Sequence record: OZ335962.1 | Reading direction: 5' to 3' (one strand) | DNA length: 64,000 nt | Source: a phage | In this document: in pieces, positions 33,375 to 47,606 of the stretch | Layout of the letters: every line of letters starts with the position of its first letter | Position numbering within the stretch: position 1 is the stretch's first letter | Made by a program: the position numbers and the translations under genes | Notes under the pieces: model-generated | What the model was told of the DNA's origin: nothing | Database searches by the model: none | Seen by the model: the letters and a program-made list of their open reading frames with translations, nothing else

Positions 33375-33905
<531 letters not shown>

Positions 33906-34361
33906 TTAAAAGAGGCTGTTCATTATTCGGTAAAGTGAAGGACCCATCACATATTGCCACTGAGTACGAGGAATAAGAGCAAAAGCATCCATCTCTGGAA
34001 TCATAACGCCATCTTTATTTTCAAAATAAGACTCGCAATGGCAATTTCTAAACATCTCATGCTCTACTGGAATCGTATAATAAAATAACTGTAAGTCTTT
34101 ATTACTAGAATATTTAAATACACCTAAGTCTTCTAGAAGGTCTGGATTATAATCGATAAAACCAGTCTCTTCTGAGCATTCTCTTTTTGCAGCTTCCAGT
34201 GCATTCAAATCAGAACTTTCTACACGCCCCTTTGGAATATCCCAGCGATGTGCCATCATTCCAGGTTTACGAGAACCGGTAACTCGTCCCATAAATAAAT
34301 CTTTATCTTCTGTCATAAAGATAATACCAGCTGATAATGTTTTCATTTTAATTTCCTGCAT
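33906..34361 (-). CDS. nudE: Nudix hydrolase NudE
   Basis: 151 aa with Nudix box GRVESSDLNALEAAKRECSEETG. Confidence 0.8.
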   Translation of the reverse strand: MQEIKMKTLSAGIIFMTEDKDLFMGRVTGSRKPGMMAHRWDIPKGRVESSDLNALEAAKRECSEETGFIDYNPDLLEDLGVFKYSSNKDLQLFYYTIPVEHEMFRNCHCESYFENKDGVMIPEMDAFALIPRTQWQYVMGPSLYRIMNSLF

Positions 34362-34831
34362 TCAGTGATAAAATTATTTAAATTTTGAGCATATTTCTTT
34401 TCATCAAAAATCTTTTGTTGTCTGCGCATCCGCCATGGCATTTCAATGAACATGTACCATATTCCTGATAATATTGATGCTGTAAAAATATTAACAAGTA
34501 TAATTAAAAGAATCCAATCTCCCGTTCTGCCTACTGGACTTTCTCCAAAGAAGCAAAATACAAATGATGTCACAGGAAAACTAATAATATACCACAGAAT
34601 CATAATCTTATCTGTGAACCAATCAGCGTTCGTTAATTTAGCGCGACCGTTTCGAATACACACGAATTTATCATCTGTCGCAGTAGATGGCTTAGCTGCT
34701 TGATATCCCATTCTAAACTCCCTAATTAATCGTTTCTTTGTATCTTCAGAACAGCCGCTCCAGTCAACTCTATCAACTGAAATGCCATCGTCCCCATCAT
34801 CTAAATCATACCAGCGAGTTTTTAAAATCAT
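34343..34831 (-). CDS. Membrane protein (soluble N-domain plus 2 TM helices); full-length copy of a tandemly duplicated gene start
   Basis: 162-aa ORF; first 82 codons identical to 34832..35086. Confidence 0.5.
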   Translation of the reverse strand: MILKTRWYDLDDGDDGISVDRVDWSGCSEDTKKRLIREFRMGYQAAKPSTATDDKFVCIRNGRAKLTNADWFTDKIMILWYIISFPVTSFVFCFFGESPVGRTGDWILLIILVNIFTASILSGIWYMFIEMPWRMRRQQKIFDEKKYAQNLNNFITECRKLK

Positions 34832-35093
34832 TTAATTTATAATATACCACAGAATCATAATCTTATCTGTGAACCAATCAGCGTTCGTTAATTTAGCGCG
34901 ACCGTTTCGAATACACACGAATTTATCATCTGTCGCAGTAGATGGCTTAGCTGCTTGATATCCCATTCTAAACTCCCTAATTAATCGTTTCTTTGTATCT
35001 TCAGAACAGCCGCTCCAGTCAACTCTATCAACTGAAATGCCATCGTCCCCATCATCTAAATCATACCAGCGAGTTTTTAAAATCATTTAATTT
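34584..35093 (-). repeat. Perfect head-to-tail tandem duplication, 2 x 255 bp (34584-34838 and 34839-35093)
   Basis: Base-by-base comparison: both copies identical; flanks diverge on both sides; unit = 7 nt leader + first 82 codons of gene 34343..34831. Confidence 0.9.
34832..35086 (-). CDS. Truncated duplicate (N-terminal domain only, 84 aa) created by 255-bp tandem duplication
   Basis: Identical to the N-terminus of 34343..34831 then IIN-stop at the repeat junction; has the original SD aggaaa. Confidence 0.4.
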   Translation of the reverse strand: MILKTRWYDLDDGDDGISVDRVDWSGCSEDTKKRLIREFRMGYQAAKPSTATDDKFVCIRNGRAKLTNADWFTDKIMILWYIIN

Positions 35094-35445
35094 TCCTACA
35101 ATCACTCACAAACTCTTCCATTGATTCTTTTTCAATATAAGACATATAGCTATTATATTCCTTTAATTGTATTTTGTAATCCTTTTTTCTTTGCCAATTT
35201 ATTTTAAAATTATCATAATGAAAATATAACATGGTACCAAAGAATGAAAATAATGAAATCGCTATAGTAAAACGAAGTTCACTCCAAACCTCTATTATAA
35301 TTACTGTGCCGTCGATGTTTAAAATAAAACAGTCAATTAACAATCCAATAAGACTACCCGCAAGAGCTGCAAATACTGATACAGCAAGAATTAATAGTGC
35401 CTCAGGAAACGAATATTTGACTTTATTTAGTTTTGGCTTTTGCAT
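35083..35445 (-). CDS. Membrane protein (2 TM helices)
   Basis: 120-aa ORF, SD aaggaa. Confidence 0.5.
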   Translation of the reverse strand: MQKPKLNKVKYSFPEALLILAVSVFAALAGSLIGLLIDCFILNIDGTVIIIEVWSELRFTIAISLFSFFGTMLYFHYDNFKINWQRKKDYKIQLKEYNSYMSYIEKESMEEFVSDCRKIK

Positions 35446-35840
35446 CGTGATTCCTTAACAAATTTCATAATTTCATCAAATTCATACATATCTAGCTTAA
35501 GCTGGTGTTCCTTTTTAATCTTTTTACACTGAGCTTTCCAATCACGTACACGTTTACGATAATGTCTTCCTTGATACCAGTATCCTACCCAATTTACAGG
35601 TACTAATAAAAGCGGAACTACCAATGGAAGAATTAGTGTTGCTCCAAATATTACACCAGATTCAATATCAGTCATAACGTCTATAACCATTCCAGCAATC
35701 ACCAAAATCACAAATGATACAGCTACCACAGGACCTATTAACACATCAGTAGAAATTAGCTGACGCTTTGGTTCATACTTCACAGGTTTACTTGGAAGGT
35801 ATAGTGATGGCTTTGACATATTCTCTACATTCCTTAACAA
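35427..35840 (-). CDS. Membrane protein (2 TM helices)
   Basis: 137-aa ORF; start uncertain. Confidence 0.45.
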   Translation of the reverse strand: MLRNVENMSKPSLYLPSKPVKYEPKRQLISTDVLIGPVVAVSFVILVIAGMVIDVMTDIESGVIFGATLILPLVVPLLLVPVNWVGYWYQGRHYRKRVRDWKAQCKKIKKEHQLKLDMYEFDEIMKFVKESRCKSQN

Positions 35841-36402
35841 ATTTTTCTAATAATAAATCACTTTCAAAATTGGGATTTTCTACGAATTTATCAAAAAGAT
35901 CATCAACAATAGTTAAGATATTCTTTTTACTAAGAATACGCTTATTTTCATATTTTGTTTCAGAGTCAACTATAAGAGTAAAGAAATATTTCTTTCCCTG
36001 AAATTTTACCGTAGTATCAATATAAAATAAATTTGATTTTTGTAAATTACGTTTAAACCATGCATCACTTAAACTATAAACGCCAAGATAATCATAATCG
36101 TCGTTTAAATAACAAACCGTCCATTCAGGAGAAATGAAATCAGTAAATTCAACATCAAAATCACACGTCAATGAATGAATTGATTCAATACTGTTAATGA
36201 GTATTCCAGGACGTATTAAAGACTTTTTACCTCTAGAAAATCTTCCGGAAAGGCTTTCATCAGTTTCATATGAAGACCCCCAATAGTAATTACGTCCTTC
36301 TGCCATGCGTTTAAGAGCATTTAGTAATTGGTCTGGAACATCAACCTGTCTTTGGAACTCTTCAAACATTGAATTGAAATCACTTTGCATTTTCATTTTC
36401 AT
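35788..36402 (-). CDS. Hypothetical protein
   Basis: 204-aa ORF, SD ggag. Confidence 0.5.
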   Translation of the reverse strand: MKMKMQSDFNSMFEEFQRQVDVPDQLLNALKRMAEGRNYYWGSSYETDESLSGRFSRGKKSLIRPGILINSIESIHSLTCDFDVEFTDFISPEWTVCYLNDDYDYLGVYSLSDAWFKRNLQKSNLFYIDTTVKFQGKKYFFTLIVDSETKYENKRILSKKNILTIVDDLFDKFVENPNFESDLLLEKFVKECREYVKAITIPSK

Positions 36403-37478: not shown

Positions 37479-37612
37479 CCGTTTTGTGAAAAAATTTTTA
37501 AAAAGTTTTATGGAATTCTGGGGCAGGGAGGGGCAATTAAAAGGTAGGATAATATATTATAAAGGGTATAAACTAAATGATGCCTAGAGAGGCCCGGAAA
37601 GGCCTAGATACC

Positions 37613-37640
37613 AAAAAGCCCCAACCTTTTGGTCGGGGTT
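37613..37640 (-). terminator. Intrinsic terminator (copy 1 of direct-repeat pair)
   Basis: RNA AACCCCGACC-AAAA-GGUUGGGGC + UUUUU; near-identical to 38172-38198. Confidence 0.6.
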
Positions 37641-37647
37641 AAGAATG

Positions 37648-38121
37648 TTATTTGATTTGTTTAGCAGACCAAATGCGGTCTTTAATAATTTTTTGAATGT
37701 CTTCAACATACTCAAGAGAGTGAACGTGTGGATTATCTTTGAAACTATAAGCACGGGCTAACTTTTGGCCTTCGGTTTTGATTACTAAAAGCTCTTTAAG
37801 GATAGCTTCATATTTAGCGATAATTCCTTTAACGATATTTTTTTCTTGTGCCGCTTTAGGATCTGCTTTAGGAGCAGGTTTACCCGAAGGCTTTGCAAAA
37901 GCAGCTCCAGTAGCAACTAAACTTTTCCAGGCCATACTAACTGCATTTCCCGTAAATCCTTCTGCTTTCATGTCGCGAGCAAATTGGAATCGTGATTCGT
38001 CAGAAGCATCTTTATAGGAATATTTACCCGCTGCAATGGCTGCTTTTGCGACAGCTTGAATTTCGGTGCTAGATGCTTCATTTAACACCGCTTCATTTAA
38101 AAATTGAGCATATGATTTCAT
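37648..38121 (-). CDS. Internal-protein-like protein (CTS-like N-terminus) in terminator-flanked cassette
   Basis: 157 aa beginning MKSYAQFLNEAVLNEASSTE; late promoter TATAAATA 38169-38162 and SD aggaa; Ala/Lys-rich. Confidence 0.55.
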   Translation of the reverse strand: MKSYAQFLNEAVLNEASSTEIQAVAKAAIAAGKYSYKDASDESRFQFARDMKAEGFTGNAVSMAWKSLVATGAAFAKPSGKPAPKADPKAAQEKNIVKGIIAKYEAILKELLVIKTEGQKLARAYSFKDNPHVHSLEYVEDIQKIIKDRIWSAKQIK

Positions 38122-38161: not shown

Positions 38162-38169
38162 TATTTATA
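38162..38169 (-). promoter_or_regulatory. Late promoter (TATAAATA) for internal-protein-like gene 37648..38121
   Basis: Exact TATAAATA on minus strand immediately after terminator 38172-38198, 41 nt upstream of ATG 38121. Confidence 0.5.
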
Positions 38170-38171
38170 CT

Positions 38172-38198
38172 AAAAAGCCCCAACCTTTCGGTCGGGGC
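38172..38198 (-). terminator. Intrinsic terminator ending the tRNA/stable-RNA operon (copy 2)
   Basis: RNA GCCCCGACC-GAAA-GGUUGGGGC + UUUUU. Confidence 0.6.
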
Positions 38199-38505
38199 TA
38201 AGCCTTGCGGCAACCTTGTCGGGGTTCCACCTGCTAAGGCAAGTGTTTGTACGAAACGCCGGGATTCGAACCCGGTTATTAAGTAGTTGACGCTACTCAA
38301 TATTTTTAAAAGGCCATATCTCGACCATATCCGAACGTTCCGTCAAAAACGCTACTCGGCTTACGGCAAAGATATTTCCTCGAATCGATAATTCGGTGCG
38401 CCGTTTCAGCTGTGATAGTAAAGAACCAGAACACAGTAAAACTGTGGGAGGAACTATACTCCAGGGAACATCAGTCCGACGACTTACCGGTAACGACCCG
38501 GTTTC
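38199..38505 (-). ncRNA. Candidate stable/structured RNA region with a tRNA-like element (about 38252..38342) ending at an intrinsic terminator
   Basis: Non-coding 300 nt downstream of the tRNA operon; T-arm-like ccgggttcgaatcccgg with flanking pairable acceptor-like strands cggaacg/cgtttcg; no convincing anticodon arm; T4 has species 1/2 RNAs at the equivalent place (recalled). Confidence 0.3.
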
Positions 38506-38872: not shown

Positions 38873-38948
38873 TGGTCGAGGCAGTAGGGATCGAACCTAC
38901 GACCCAGGACTTAGAAGGTCCTTGCTCTTCCTTCTGAGCTATGCCTCG
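38873..38948 (-). tRNA. tRNA-Arg (anticodon UCU)
   Basis: 76-nt cloverleaf read by hand: acceptor cgaggca/tgcctcg, anticodon loop cuUCUaa, T-loop ttcgatc, encoded CCA. Confidence 0.85.
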
Positions 38949-38952
38949 GATT

Positions 38953-39027
38953 TGGCGGACGTGATAGGATTCGAACCTATAACCAATCGCTTAACAGGCG
39001 ATCGCTCTGCCATTGAGCTACACATCC
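38953..39027 (-). tRNA. tRNA-Asn (anticodon GUU)
   Basis: 75 nt: acceptor ggatgtg/cacgtcc, anticodon stem atcgc/gcgat loop cuGUUaa, T-loop ttcgaat, encoded CCA. Confidence 0.8.
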
Positions 39028-39031
39028 AAAT

Positions 39032-39118
39032 TGGTGGGGAGTGATGGAGTCGAACCACCCGAGTCGCAATGACAATGGATTTACAGTCCACACCGCTACC
39101 TCTACGGGATAACTCCCC
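39032..39118 (-). tRNA. tRNA-Tyr (anticodon GUA), class II with long variable arm
   Basis: 87 nt: acceptor ggggagt/actcccc, anticodon stem gtgga/tccat loop cuGUAaa, 15-nt variable arm, T-loop ttcgact, encoded CCA. Confidence 0.75.
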
Positions 39119-39127
39119 AAATTAATT

Positions 39128-39202
39128 TGGTGGCCCTGGGTGGAATTGAACCACCATCTGGCGATTATGAGTCGCTTGCTTGAACCTTCCAGCTACAGGG
39201 CC
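39128..39202 (-). tRNA. tRNA-Ile/Met (anticodon CAU)
   Basis: 75 nt: acceptor ggccctg/cagggcc, anticodon loop cuCAUaa, T-stem ggtgg/ccacc, encoded CCA; T4 homolog reads AUA after lysidine modification. Confidence 0.8.
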
Positions 39203-39203
39203 T

Positions 39204-39279
39204 TGGTGCTGATTGACGGAATCGAACCGCCGACCTTCTCATTACAAGTGAGTTGCTCTACCTACTGAGCTAAATCAGC
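39204..39279 (-). tRNA. tRNA-Thr (anticodon UGU)
   Basis: 76 nt: acceptor gctgatt/aatcagc, D-stem gctc/gagc, anticodon loop cuUGUaa, T-loop ttcgatt, encoded CCA. Confidence 0.85.
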
Positions 39280-39284
39280 AAAAC

Positions 39285-39374
39285 TGGCGGAGGCGATAGG
39301 ATTTGAACCTATGAGTCGCCGGAGCGACTGCCGGTTTTCAAGACCGGTGCATTAAACCACTCTGCCACGCCTCC
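39285..39374 (-). tRNA. tRNA-Ser (anticodon UGA), class II
   Basis: 90 nt: acceptor ggaggcg/cgcctcc, anticodon stem ccggt/accgg loop cuUGAaa, long variable arm, T-loop ttcaaat, encoded CCA. Confidence 0.85.
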
Positions 39375-39376
39375 AG

Positions 39377-39450
39377 TCTCCATACAAGGATTTGAACCTT
39401 GGACCTCCTGATCCCAAATCAGGCGCTCTACCAAACTGAGCTACACGGAG
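39377..39450 (-). tRNA. tRNA-Pro (anticodon UGG), CCA not encoded
   Basis: 74 nt to discriminator: acceptor ctccgtg/tatggag (two G-U pairs), anticodon stem cctga/tcagg loop uuUGGga, T-loop ttcaaat; 3' flank is ctg, not CCA. Confidence 0.8.
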
Positions 39451-39460
39451 TAAATTAAAT

Positions 39461-39534
<74 letters not shown>

Positions 39535-39539
39535 AAATT

Positions 39540-39626
39540 TGGTGCGAGAAGTGGGACTCGAACCCACAAGGAAATCATTCCGCAGCATTTTAAGTGCTGT
39601 GCCTTTACCAATTTGACCATTCTCGC
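39540..39626 (-). tRNA. tRNA-Leu (anticodon UAA), class II
   Basis: 87 nt: acceptor gcgagaa/ttctcgc, anticodon stem cagca/tgctg loop cuUAAaa, long variable arm, T-loop ttcgagt, encoded CCA. Confidence 0.85.
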
Positions 39627-39627
39627 G

Positions 39628-39700
39628 CTGGGAATAAAGGACTCGAACCTTTGCATCCTGGAATCAAAATCCAGTGCCTTACCAACTTGGCTAATTCCCA
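39628..39700 (-). tRNA. tRNA-Gln (anticodon UUG), CCA not encoded
   Basis: 73 nt to discriminator: acceptor tgggaat/attccca, anticodon stem ctgga/tccag loop uuUUGau, T-loop ttcgagt; abuts tRNA-Leu 5' end. Confidence 0.8.
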
Positions 39701-41474: not shown

Positions 41475-41511
41475 TTTAGTTTCCATTCGATTGTTTTGTT
41501 TTGATAGGGTA

Positions 41512-45304: not shown

Positions 45305-45895
45305 ATGCTCTTTACATTTTTTGATCCGATTGAATATGCGGCCAAAACGGTGAATAAAAACGCGCCGACTATTCCTATGACAGATATTTTTAGAAACTAT
45401 AAAGACTATTTCAAACGTGCTCTTGCAGGATACCGCTTACGCACTTATTATATTAAAGGTTCACCACGTCCGGAAGAATTAGCAAATGCTATATATGGAA
45501 ATCCGCAGTTGTATTGGGTTTTATTGATGTGTAATGATAATTATGATCCGTATTATGGATGGATTACTTCGCAAGAAGCTGCTTATCAAGCATCTATACA
45601 AAAATACAAAAACGTAGGTGGAGACCAAATAGTATATCATGTGAATGAGAACGGTGAAAAATTTTATAATTTAATATCATACGATGATAATCCATATGTT
45701 TGGTATGACAAAGGCGATAAAGCTAGAAAATATCCTCAATATGAAGGAGCACTTGCTGCGGTCGATACGTATGAAGCTGCTGTTCTTGAAAATGAAAAAC
45801 TTCGTCAAATAAAAATAATAGCAAAATCAGACATCAATTCATTTATGAACGACCTTATACGTATAATGGAGAAATCTTATGGAAATGATAAGTAA
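45305..45895 (+). CDS. 53: Baseplate wedge protein gp53
   Basis: 196-aa ORF; late promoter TATAAATA 45269-45276 and SD caggaggg upstream. Confidence 0.85.
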   Translation: MLFTFFDPIEYAAKTVNKNAPTIPMTDIFRNYKDYFKRALAGYRLRTYYIKGSPRPEELANAIYGNPQLYWVLLMCNDNYDPYYGWITSQEAAYQASIQKYKNVGGDQIVYHVNENGEKFYNLISYDDNPYVWYDKGDKARKYPQYEGALAAVDTYEAAVLENEKLRQIKIIAKSDINSFMNDLIRIMEKSYGNDK

Positions 45896-47606
45896 TAACC
45901 TTAATTGGTTTGTTGGTGTTGTTGAAGATAGAATGGACCCATTAAAATTAGGTCGTGTTCGTGTTCGTGTAGTTGGTCTGCATCCACCTCAAAGAGCACA
46001 AGGCGACGTAATGGGTATTCCAACTGATAAATTACCATGGATGTCAGTTATTCAACCTATAACTTCTGCAGCAATGTCTGGAATTGGAGGCTCCGTTACT
46101 GGTCCGGTAGAAGGAACTAGAGTCTATGGTCATTTTTTAGACAAATGGAAAACTAACGGAATTGTCCTTGGCACGTATGGTGGAATAGTTCGCGAAAAAC
46201 CTAATAGACTTGAAGGATTTTCTGATCCGACTGGACAGTATCCTAGACGTCTAGGAAATGATACTAACGTATTAAACCAAGGCGGAGAAGTAGGATATGA
46301 TTCGTCTTCTAATATTATCCAAGATAGCAATCTAGACACTGCGATAAATCCTGATGATAGACCGCTATCAGAAATTCCAACTGATGATAATCCAAATATG
46401 TCAATGGCTGAAATGCTTCGCCGCGATGAAGGATTAAGACTAAAAGTTTATTGGGATACTGAAGGATATCCGACAATTGGTATTGGTCATCTTATCATGA
46501 AGCAGCCAGTGCGTGATATGACCCAAATTAATAAAGTTTTATCAAAACAAGTTGGTCGTGAAATTACCGGAAATCCAGGTTCTATTACAATGGAAGAATC
46601 GGTAACTTTATTTGAACGCGATTTGGCTGATATGCAACGTGACATTAAATCACATTCTAAAGTTGGCCCAGTTTGGCAAGCAGTTAATCGTTCTCGTCAA
46701 ATGGCATTAGAAAATATGGCATTTCAGATGGGCGTTGGCGGTGTAGCTAAATTTAACACAATGTTAACTGCTATGTTAGCCGGAGATTGGGAAAAGGCAT
46801 ATAAAGCTGGTCGTGATTCATTGTGGTATCAACAAACAAAAGGCCGTGCATCTCGTGTTACCATGATTATTCTTACAGGTAATTTGGAATCATACGGTAT
46901 TGAAGTGAAAACACCGTCTAGGTCTTTGTCAGCAATGGCTGCTACTGTAGCAAAGTCTTCTGATCCAGCTGACCCTCCTATTCCGAATGATTCGAGAATT
47001 TTATTTAAAGAACCTGTTTCTTCATATAAAGGTGAATATCCGTATGTTCATACAATGGAAACTGAAAGCGGTCATATTCAGGAATTTGATGATACCCCTG
47101 GGCAAGAACGATACAGATTAGTTCATCCGACTGGAACATATGAGGAAGTATCACCCTCAGGAAGAAGAACAAGAAAAACTGTTGATAATTTGTATGATAT
47201 AACAAATGCTGATGGTAATTTTTTGGTAGCCGGTGATAAAAAGACTAACGTCGGTGGGTCAGAAATTTATTACAACATGGATAATCGTCTCCACCAAATA
47301 GATGGAAGCAATACAATATTTGTACGTGGCGATGAAACTAAGACGGTTGAAGGTAATGGAACTATCCTAGTCAAAGGTAATGTTACTATTGTAGTTGAAG
47401 GTAATGCTGACATTACAGTTAAAGGAGATGCTACCACTTTAGTTGAAGGAAATCAGACTAATACAGTAAATGGAAATCTTTCTTGGAAAGTTGCTGGTAC
47501 AGTTGATTGGGACGTTGGTGGTGATTGGACAGAAAAAATGGCATCTATGAGTTCTATTTCATCTGGTCAATACACAATTGATGGATCGAGGATTGACATT
47601 GGCTAA
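45879..47606 (+). CDS. 5: Baseplate hub/central spike with lysozyme domain gp5
   Basis: 575 aa; OB-fold N-terminus, lysozyme domain AEMLRRDEGLRLKVYWDTEGYPTIGIGHL (paralog of e), C-terminal VxGxxxxx beta-helix repeats. Confidence 0.95.
   Translation: MEMISNNLNWFVGVVEDRMDPLKLGRVRVRVVGLHPPQRAQGDVMGIPTDKLPWMSVIQPITSAAMSGIGGSVTGPVEGTRVYGHFLDKWKTNGIVLGTYGGIVREKPNRLEGFSDPTGQYPRRLGNDTNVLNQGGEVGYDSSSNIIQDSNLDTAINPDDRPLSEIPTDDNPNMSMAEMLRRDEGLRLKVYWDTEGYPTIGIGHLIMKQPVRDMTQINKVLSKQVGREITGNPGSITMEESVTLFERDLADMQRDIKSHSKVGPVWQAVNRSRQMALENMAFQMGVGGVAKFNTMLTAMLAGDWEKAYKAGRDSLWYQQTKGRASRVTMIILTGNLESYGIEVKTPSRSLSAMAATVAKSSDPADPPIPNDSRILFKEPVSSYKGEYPYVHTMETESGHIQEFDDTPGQERYRLVHPTGTYEEVSPSGRRTRKTVDNLYDITNADGNFLVAGDKKTNVGGSEIYYNMDNRLHQIDGSNTIFVRGDETKTVEGNGTILVKGNVTIVVEGNADITVKGDATTLVEGNQTNTVNGNLSWKVAGTVDWDVGGDWTEKMASMSSISSGQYTIDGSRIDIG

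Follow-up and report, generated by a model that had tools for sequence, protein, structure and literature searches.

The window, by which we mean the whole analysed stretch of 64,000 nucleotides from the phage sequence record OZ335962.1, contains the e / nudE / e.2 / e.3 / e.4 / e.5 block of Tequatrovirus (T4-like) phages. All of these genes lie on the minus strand, and their names were taken from the annotated records LR746311 and T4 NC_000866. The 3.2 kb surrounding the repeat described below have matches of 90-98% identity in about 600 phage records, and the best phage matches across 24 kb reach 96-98%. This layout of open reading frames (ORFs) agrees with the original prediction, made from the letters of the sequence, which had placed a tandem duplication near e/nudE of a T4-like genome. 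The features of the locus are as follows:

33375-33869, minus strand: e (lysozyme), 164 aa
33906-34361, minus strand: nudE, 151 aa
34343-34831, minus strand: full-length e.2, 162 aa (from the ORF table)
34584-34838, no strand assigned: repeat copy 1, the 5' part (leader and about 82 2/3 codons) of the intact full-length e.2 (from Tandem Repeats Finder, TRF, and string identity)
34829-34849, minus strand: novel joint, TGGTATATTAT followed by AAATTAAATG, the junction falling between positions 34839 and 34838, TAA at 34832-34834 and ATG at 34829-34831
34832-35086, minus strand: truncated ORF e.2', 84 aa, ending in WYIIN and a stop (from the ORF table)
34839-35093, no strand assigned: repeat copy 2, nearly all of the truncated e.2' ORF and the native 7-nt spacer after the Shine-Dalgarno sequence (from TRF and string identity)
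35083-35445, minus strand: e.3, 120 aa; its last codons, C-R-K-I-K-stop, hold the Shine-Dalgarno sequence, and its TGA overlaps the e.2' ATG
35094-35097, minus strand: Shine-Dalgarno sequence AGGA, directly outside the repeat and serving the upstream (truncated) copy only (read from the minus-strand sequence)
35427-35840, minus strand: e.4, 137 aa as listed (TTG start), or 130 aa from the ATG at 35819 according to the BW-1 and T4 annotation
35788-36402, minus strand: e.5, 204 aa

The gene in which the repeat lies, e.2, encodes a protein which in its full-length form matches PHROG 2203, 'membrane protein', over residues 1-160 (E=2e-77). Its homologues form 51 clusters with 79-93% identity, all of them with PF26896 (Phage_T4_Y06M) and all from Tequatrovirus. 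The position of e.2 between nudE and e.3 is also conserved, as seen from the synteny with LR746311, OR125554, PP418987 and T4, and both the full-length similarity and this position place the protein in the PF26896 family; a local Pfam search with e.2 gave only sub-threshold noise. According to hydropathy, e.2 has two predicted transmembrane (TM) helices, at residues ~76-96 and ~106-128, and a strongly basic C-terminal tail, so that by the positive-inside rule both termini are predicted to be cytoplasmic. In an AlphaFold2 model built with 26 homologues the quality was too low for a domain to be recognised (mean pLDDT 51, pTM 0.27).

Shorter forms of this protein are found in nature. The T4 reference e.2 (NP_049738) is annotated with 102 aa, which results from two compensating frameshifts, -1 and +1, separated by about 77 nt. 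When T4 NC_000866 1473-1968 is compared with positions 34343-34838 of the window and with BW-1, a 1-nt deletion is seen in an A-run after codon 96, followed by a 1-nt insertion; between them they scramble the loop together with the first part of the second TM helix and introduce a stop. These frameshifts could be real or could be an old sequencing error. Forms of 102 aa and 122 aa exist in other phages, the 102-aa form in fPS-2-like phages. In Escherichia phage vB_EcoM-UFV05, a protein of 106 aa consists of the N-terminus of e.4 (MSKPSLYLPSEPVKYE...) fused to e.2 from about residue 86, an arrangement which implies a putative deletion of e.3 together with the N-terminal part of e.2. The joint of this fusion is only about three codons from the left breakpoint of the 255-bp duplication. 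The truncated and fused forms in these genomes demonstrate the natural plasticity of the e.2 locus; loss or truncation of the gene is tolerated, and its full-length form is dispensable.

The array at 34584-35093 is the sole one that TRF reported (period 255, 2.0 copies, 100% matches, 0 indels, score 1020). By direct string comparison, 34584-34838 and 34839-35093 agree at 255 of 255 nt, head to tail, at exactly the predicted coordinates, and the copy number is exactly two. A perfect repeat of 255 nt is beyond the reach of chance. It also stands alone in the 64-kb window: all other repeats that we found there, whether tandem or dispersed, do not exceed 71 nt, and their families consist of short gene-start motifs and of early-promoter regions of the T4 type. 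On the minus strand, the unit comprises a 7-nt leader (AAATTAA) and 248 nt of e.2, that is 82 codons and 2 nt (82 2/3 codons), which bears out its earlier description as 7 nt of leader plus the first 82 codons of the gene. The break falls at residue 83, within the predicted TM helix 1, and e.2' consequently ends in an 8-residue hydrophobic stub, IMILWYII. At the breakpoints, the exact shared homology is 0 nt on both sides.

In codons of the minus strand the joint reads ...TGG TAT ATT AT/A AAT TAA ATG..., the slash marking the junction, with ...AAAATCATTTAATTT on one side of it and ATAATATACCACAG... on the other. The direct succession of TAA and ATG was predicted correctly. The TAA is indeed in frame, because 255 is a multiple of 3, but it belongs to the native leader and is not a creation of the joint, as had been claimed. 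The e.2' ORF has 83 native residues and an Asn before the TAA, and it keeps the native Shine-Dalgarno sequence and the ATGA stop/start overlap with e.3; the native e.3/e.2 junction on the minus strand is ...TGT AGG AAA ATT AAA TGA..., where the TGA of e.3 overlaps the ATG of e.2. The upstream copy had been described as a soluble N-terminal domain of 84 aa with the original Shine-Dalgarno sequence. Its length and its initiation signal hold, but its product would not be purely soluble, the break being inside TM helix 1. The downstream copy does encode the full-length protein, with an intact ORF of 162 aa, to which we add the refinement that it has no Shine-Dalgarno sequence: only AAATTAA stands ahead of its ATG, and the 20 nt before the ATG are CTGTGGTATATTATAAATTAA. 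Since the AGGA lies outside the unit, full-length e.2 is left without a ribosome-binding site of its own, and its translation would be possible only by re-initiation after the abutting TAA.

In phage operons, stop/start coupling takes the form of ATGA or TAAATG. The native e.3/e.2 and e.2/nudE junctions are of this kind, with ATGA following AGGA, and the TAA-ATG of the new joint resembles them. It differs from the usual coupling in the absence of a Shine-Dalgarno sequence upstream, so that re-initiation alone would have to serve. The genes e.3, e.2 and nudE follow each other in series through one linking module, in which the codons of the protein tail F-x-x-x-C-R-K-(I/L)-K give the AGGA, followed by the ATGA overlap. 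The module is present at 34343-34361 and 35083-35100 of the window and at the 3' ends of e.4 and e.5; protein tail and translation-initiation signal are here the same sequence. We considered whether paralogy of e.2 with e.3 and e.4 might have provided a substrate for recombination and rejected this, as only the F-x-x-x-C-R-K-(I/L)-K tail is common to them and it is not at the breakpoints. RNA structure at the two start sites was not significant (z = +0.3 and -0.6). A scan of the unit revealed no sigma-70-type promoter-like or terminator-like site, and promoter-like sites over the surrounding 5.5 kb were no more frequent than in shuffled sequences. The exact late promoter TATAAATA is absent from the unit. 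The joint itself, TATAAATT, matches a late promoter in 7 of 8 positions; we set this candidate aside, as a start from it would be expected at or after the ATG.

Is the duplication found in any other phage? Comparison with related T4-like genomes had been proposed as a check on the prediction, and it showed e.2 at a single place in all of the related phage records (448/448), and the DNA of the window's e.2 is at least 4% different from that of every one of them. A query that covered the joint matched as two pieces that span 255 bases of the record in 40 of the 40 records listed, and it had a second place in none of the 441 matching records. In the alignment to BW-1 and vB_SsoM_113, these relatives are without exactly 255 nt, which appear as a clean gap. 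The joint was searched for with exact and degenerate patterns in viral, metagenome and genome contigs, and with megablast in phages, E. coli genomes and plasmids. It was absent from phages, IMG/VR, JGI metagenomes, GTDB genomes, E. coli genomes and plasmids, a lone 22-nt match in a metagenome contig being dismissed as unrelated AT-rich sequence. The exact proteins of 84 aa and 162 aa have no entry in the protein or gene indexes, including the Logan/ENA/NCBI gene index. The nudE protein is identical in phage UPWr_E4 (PP418987), although the DNA of that phage is only 94-96% identical and holds one e.2 copy. Our search of the literature found no report of an e.2 duplication or of tandem duplications in Tequatrovirus genomes.

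The relatives also allow the event to be ordered in time. Inside e.2 there is a mosaic boundary, at about 34694 of the window in one copy and 34949 in the other. To the right of ~34950 and through e.3 the window is identical to BW-1 and vB_SsoM_113, whereas to the left of the boundary, in the 3' two-thirds of e.2, it diverges from both by about 10%. Both copies carry the same boundary, so the duplication must be later than that exchange. Taken together, these alignments indicate that the duplication occurs in the window sequence alone and would be much younger than the divergence of at least 4% which separates this e.2 from its nearest relative. A mis-assembly of mixed strains was ruled out by the identity of the copies and their common mosaic boundary.

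How, then, did the repeat arise? According to the original prediction, the duplication was either very recent or the product of an assembly error, and both possibilities have survived our tests. The evidence tilts to assembly error in view of the missing microhomology, the length of 255 and the uniqueness of the repeat among relatives. We consider it probable that the repeat is an untrimmed overlap of contig ends, which would lie outside the true phage chromosome, and the history of the assembly that we infer is the following. T4-like genomes are circularly permuted and come out of assembly as a circle. A graph assembler puts out such a circle as a linear contig, both ends of which repeat one stretch as long as the final k-mer. 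If the contig was then given a new starting point, for instance to match the gene order of T4, and its former ends were pasted together untrimmed, a perfect repeat of two copies would result at an arbitrary position, which would here be the 5' half of e.2.

Several observations favour such an artefact. The copies are 100% identical, against a DNA distance of at least 4% to all 448 related e.2 genes; the breakpoints show no microhomology; and the joint is absent from every relative and collection searched. The unit comprises only half of a gene, with neither a promoter nor a Shine-Dalgarno sequence, unlike a target of dosage selection. The length of the repeat is exactly 255, or 2^8-1. The largest k which MEGAHIT accepts is 255, and a circular contig from a de Bruijn graph run at k=255 has an end overlap of about that length. 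The setting '--k-max 255' is in published use, including in a phage virome study. The repeat would agree in length with the overlap of a circular contig if the final k-mer was 255, a value in practical use (MEGAHIT --k-max 255). If the duplication were genuine, a length of exactly 255 would be a coincidence. SPAdes, the commonest assembler, uses k of at most 127, into which 255 does not fit, and this speaks against an artefact, as does the fact that k=255 runs are uncommon and 255 is outside the common default values of k. Microhomology is expected to be absent (0 nt) from around half of random joints, and it is absent from some genuine events of illegitimate recombination as well, so that this feature provides only a modest likelihood ratio.

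Artefacts of a similar kind have been described in phage genomes. Repeat regions of ~79 bp were present in 7 of 10 short-read phage assemblies, sometimes within the re-oriented genome, and Sanger sequencing showed that most of them were assembly artefacts (PMC10438801). The e.2 repeat is like these przondovirus artefacts in its perfect identity, its two copies, its arbitrary place with respect to genes, its lack of microhomology and its absence from relatives. Other points count against an assembly error. Tandem repeats are collapsed by assemblers more often than they are created. The window is clean, with no ambiguous bases, and its large structural and replication ORFs, which we take to be counterparts of T4 genes from their position and length, have the length expected from T4. 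The natural plasticity of the e.2 locus, with its truncated and fused forms, also argues against an artefact.

Could the duplication nevertheless be genuine? It is possible, though we hold it for the less probable explanation, that the repeat is a very recent tandem duplication which arose by illegitimate recombination or replication slippage, was fixed by the bottleneck of plaque purification and is neutral or mildly deleterious. Very active homologous recombination in T4 should remove a direct repeat of 255 bp at a measurable rate, and a perfect repeat of this length should therefore be unstable in a hyper-recombinogenic phage unless it is selected. On the other side, tandem duplications and amplifications arise readily in T4, and a gain of 255 bp is trivial against a terminal redundancy of ~3.3 kb (figure in PMC9391042). 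The 102-aa form of T4, the 102-aa and 122-aa forms elsewhere and the e.4::e.2 fusion of UFV05 indicate that full-length e.2 may be dispensed with, and the arrangement in the window, which retains an intact e.2 copy and stop/start coupling, should be tolerated. The common mosaic boundary of the two copies against BW-1 is what would be expected of a late event in the lineage, and base-level quality across the window is good. Against this, the feature is confined to one genome and was not met again in any of the collections searched, and the unit has no complete gene and hence nothing selectable for dosage.

The best characterised events with which such a duplication can be compared are those of the T4 dmd-tifA 'accordion', a microhomology-mediated tandem segmental amplification with 6-10 bp at the boundaries (Srikant et al. 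2022, PMC9391042). As read in the sequence of the record, the e.2 repeat shares with the accordion, and with the older duplication genetics of rII, a direct head-to-tail repeat, a location in a non-essential accessory region of a Tequatrovirus, and young, identical copies. In the accordion events, however, the 6-10 bp of microhomology are accompanied by whole genes with a promoter, several copies and a known selection, whereas the e.2 repeat has 0 nt of microhomology and two copies, and its unit holds half a gene with neither promoter nor Shine-Dalgarno sequence. Among the hallmarks of T4 amplification, flanking homology of 6-10 bp with one copy left at the joint is absent here, and so is a unit containing a complete gene with its expression signals.

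If the duplication is nevertheless real, ribosomes coupled to e.3 would translate e.2' at the native rate and so make a cytoplasmic fragment of 84 aa from the N-terminal part of e.2. A fraction of them would re-initiate at the abutting ATG, and the amount of full-length e.2 would probably be reduced, its Shine-Dalgarno sequence being missing. T4-type recombination would delete one copy at a measurable rate, and the duplication would be transient unless selected. It may be asked whether such selection exists, with either the separate N-terminal fragment or the lowered amount of full-length e.2 being advantageous on some host. We think this very improbable. N-terminal-only e.2 proteins do occur naturally, T4 included, which shows that the N-terminal part can outlast the remainder of the protein, and selected amplification is a documented route in T4. 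The truncated e.2 of T4 (NP_049738) and of fPS-2-like phages is similar to e.2' in being an N-terminal product made from the native start coupled to e.3. It differs in that its frameshift comes after residue 96, TM helix 1 is whole and no intact e.2 stands behind it, whereas e.2' stops at residue 83 and is followed by an intact copy. The natural 102-aa forms thus retain the entire helix inside which e.2' ends. Selection also inherits every argument against a real duplication, there are only two copies, and the AlphaFold model (mean pLDDT 51) shows no domain. Under selection, e.2 would have been split into a separately translated N-terminal fragment and a membrane protein dependent on re-initiation, as a case of gene fission or as the beginning of a gene accordion, which we regard as highly unlikely. 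The weights that we give to an artefact, a neutral duplication and a selected one are a judgement and were not computed.

What would follow from either outcome is limited. If the repeat is an artefact, which we think probable, 255 bp would have to be taken out of the record, and the spurious 84-aa "gene" should stay out of protein databases. A real repeat would add to the young tandem duplications for which this phage family is known, an ordinary one affecting a non-essential gene, and would be a mildly useful natural case for studying stop/start re-initiation without a Shine-Dalgarno sequence and the rate of repeat collapse. Neither outcome is new in kind, and the weight for biology is small.

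Other features of the window deserve brief mention. The minus strand at 38873-39700 holds a cluster of 10 tRNA genes (Arg, Asn, Tyr, Met(CAT), Thr, Ser, Pro, Gly, Leu and Gln). T4 itself has 8, and the comparison points to extra Asn and Tyr tRNAs in the phage of OZ335962.1. On the plus strand, 47350-47453 contains degenerate 24-nt tandem repeats with 71-81% identity inside a 575-aa ORF (45879-47606), which presumably corresponds to gp5, as it resembles that protein in position and length; the 24-nt period would fit 8-residue beta-helix repeats. Two 36-nt copies which are 92% identical, 37608-37643 and 38167-38202, lie on either side of a 157-aa ORF (37648-38121), and in each of them the minus strand can form a strong hairpin resembling a terminator (stems 37619-37638 and 38176-38199). 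They could have arisen by duplication of a terminator, or they could mark where a gene cassette was inserted, as its two ends. Finally, a 71-nt repeat family occurs on the plus strand at seven sites within 9589-41899. Read on the minus strand, it appears to be the T4 early-promoter region (of the GTTTACA ... TATTAT type) upstream of early genes, and two of its copies, at 41499 and 41829, share 86% identity at a distance of 330 nt.
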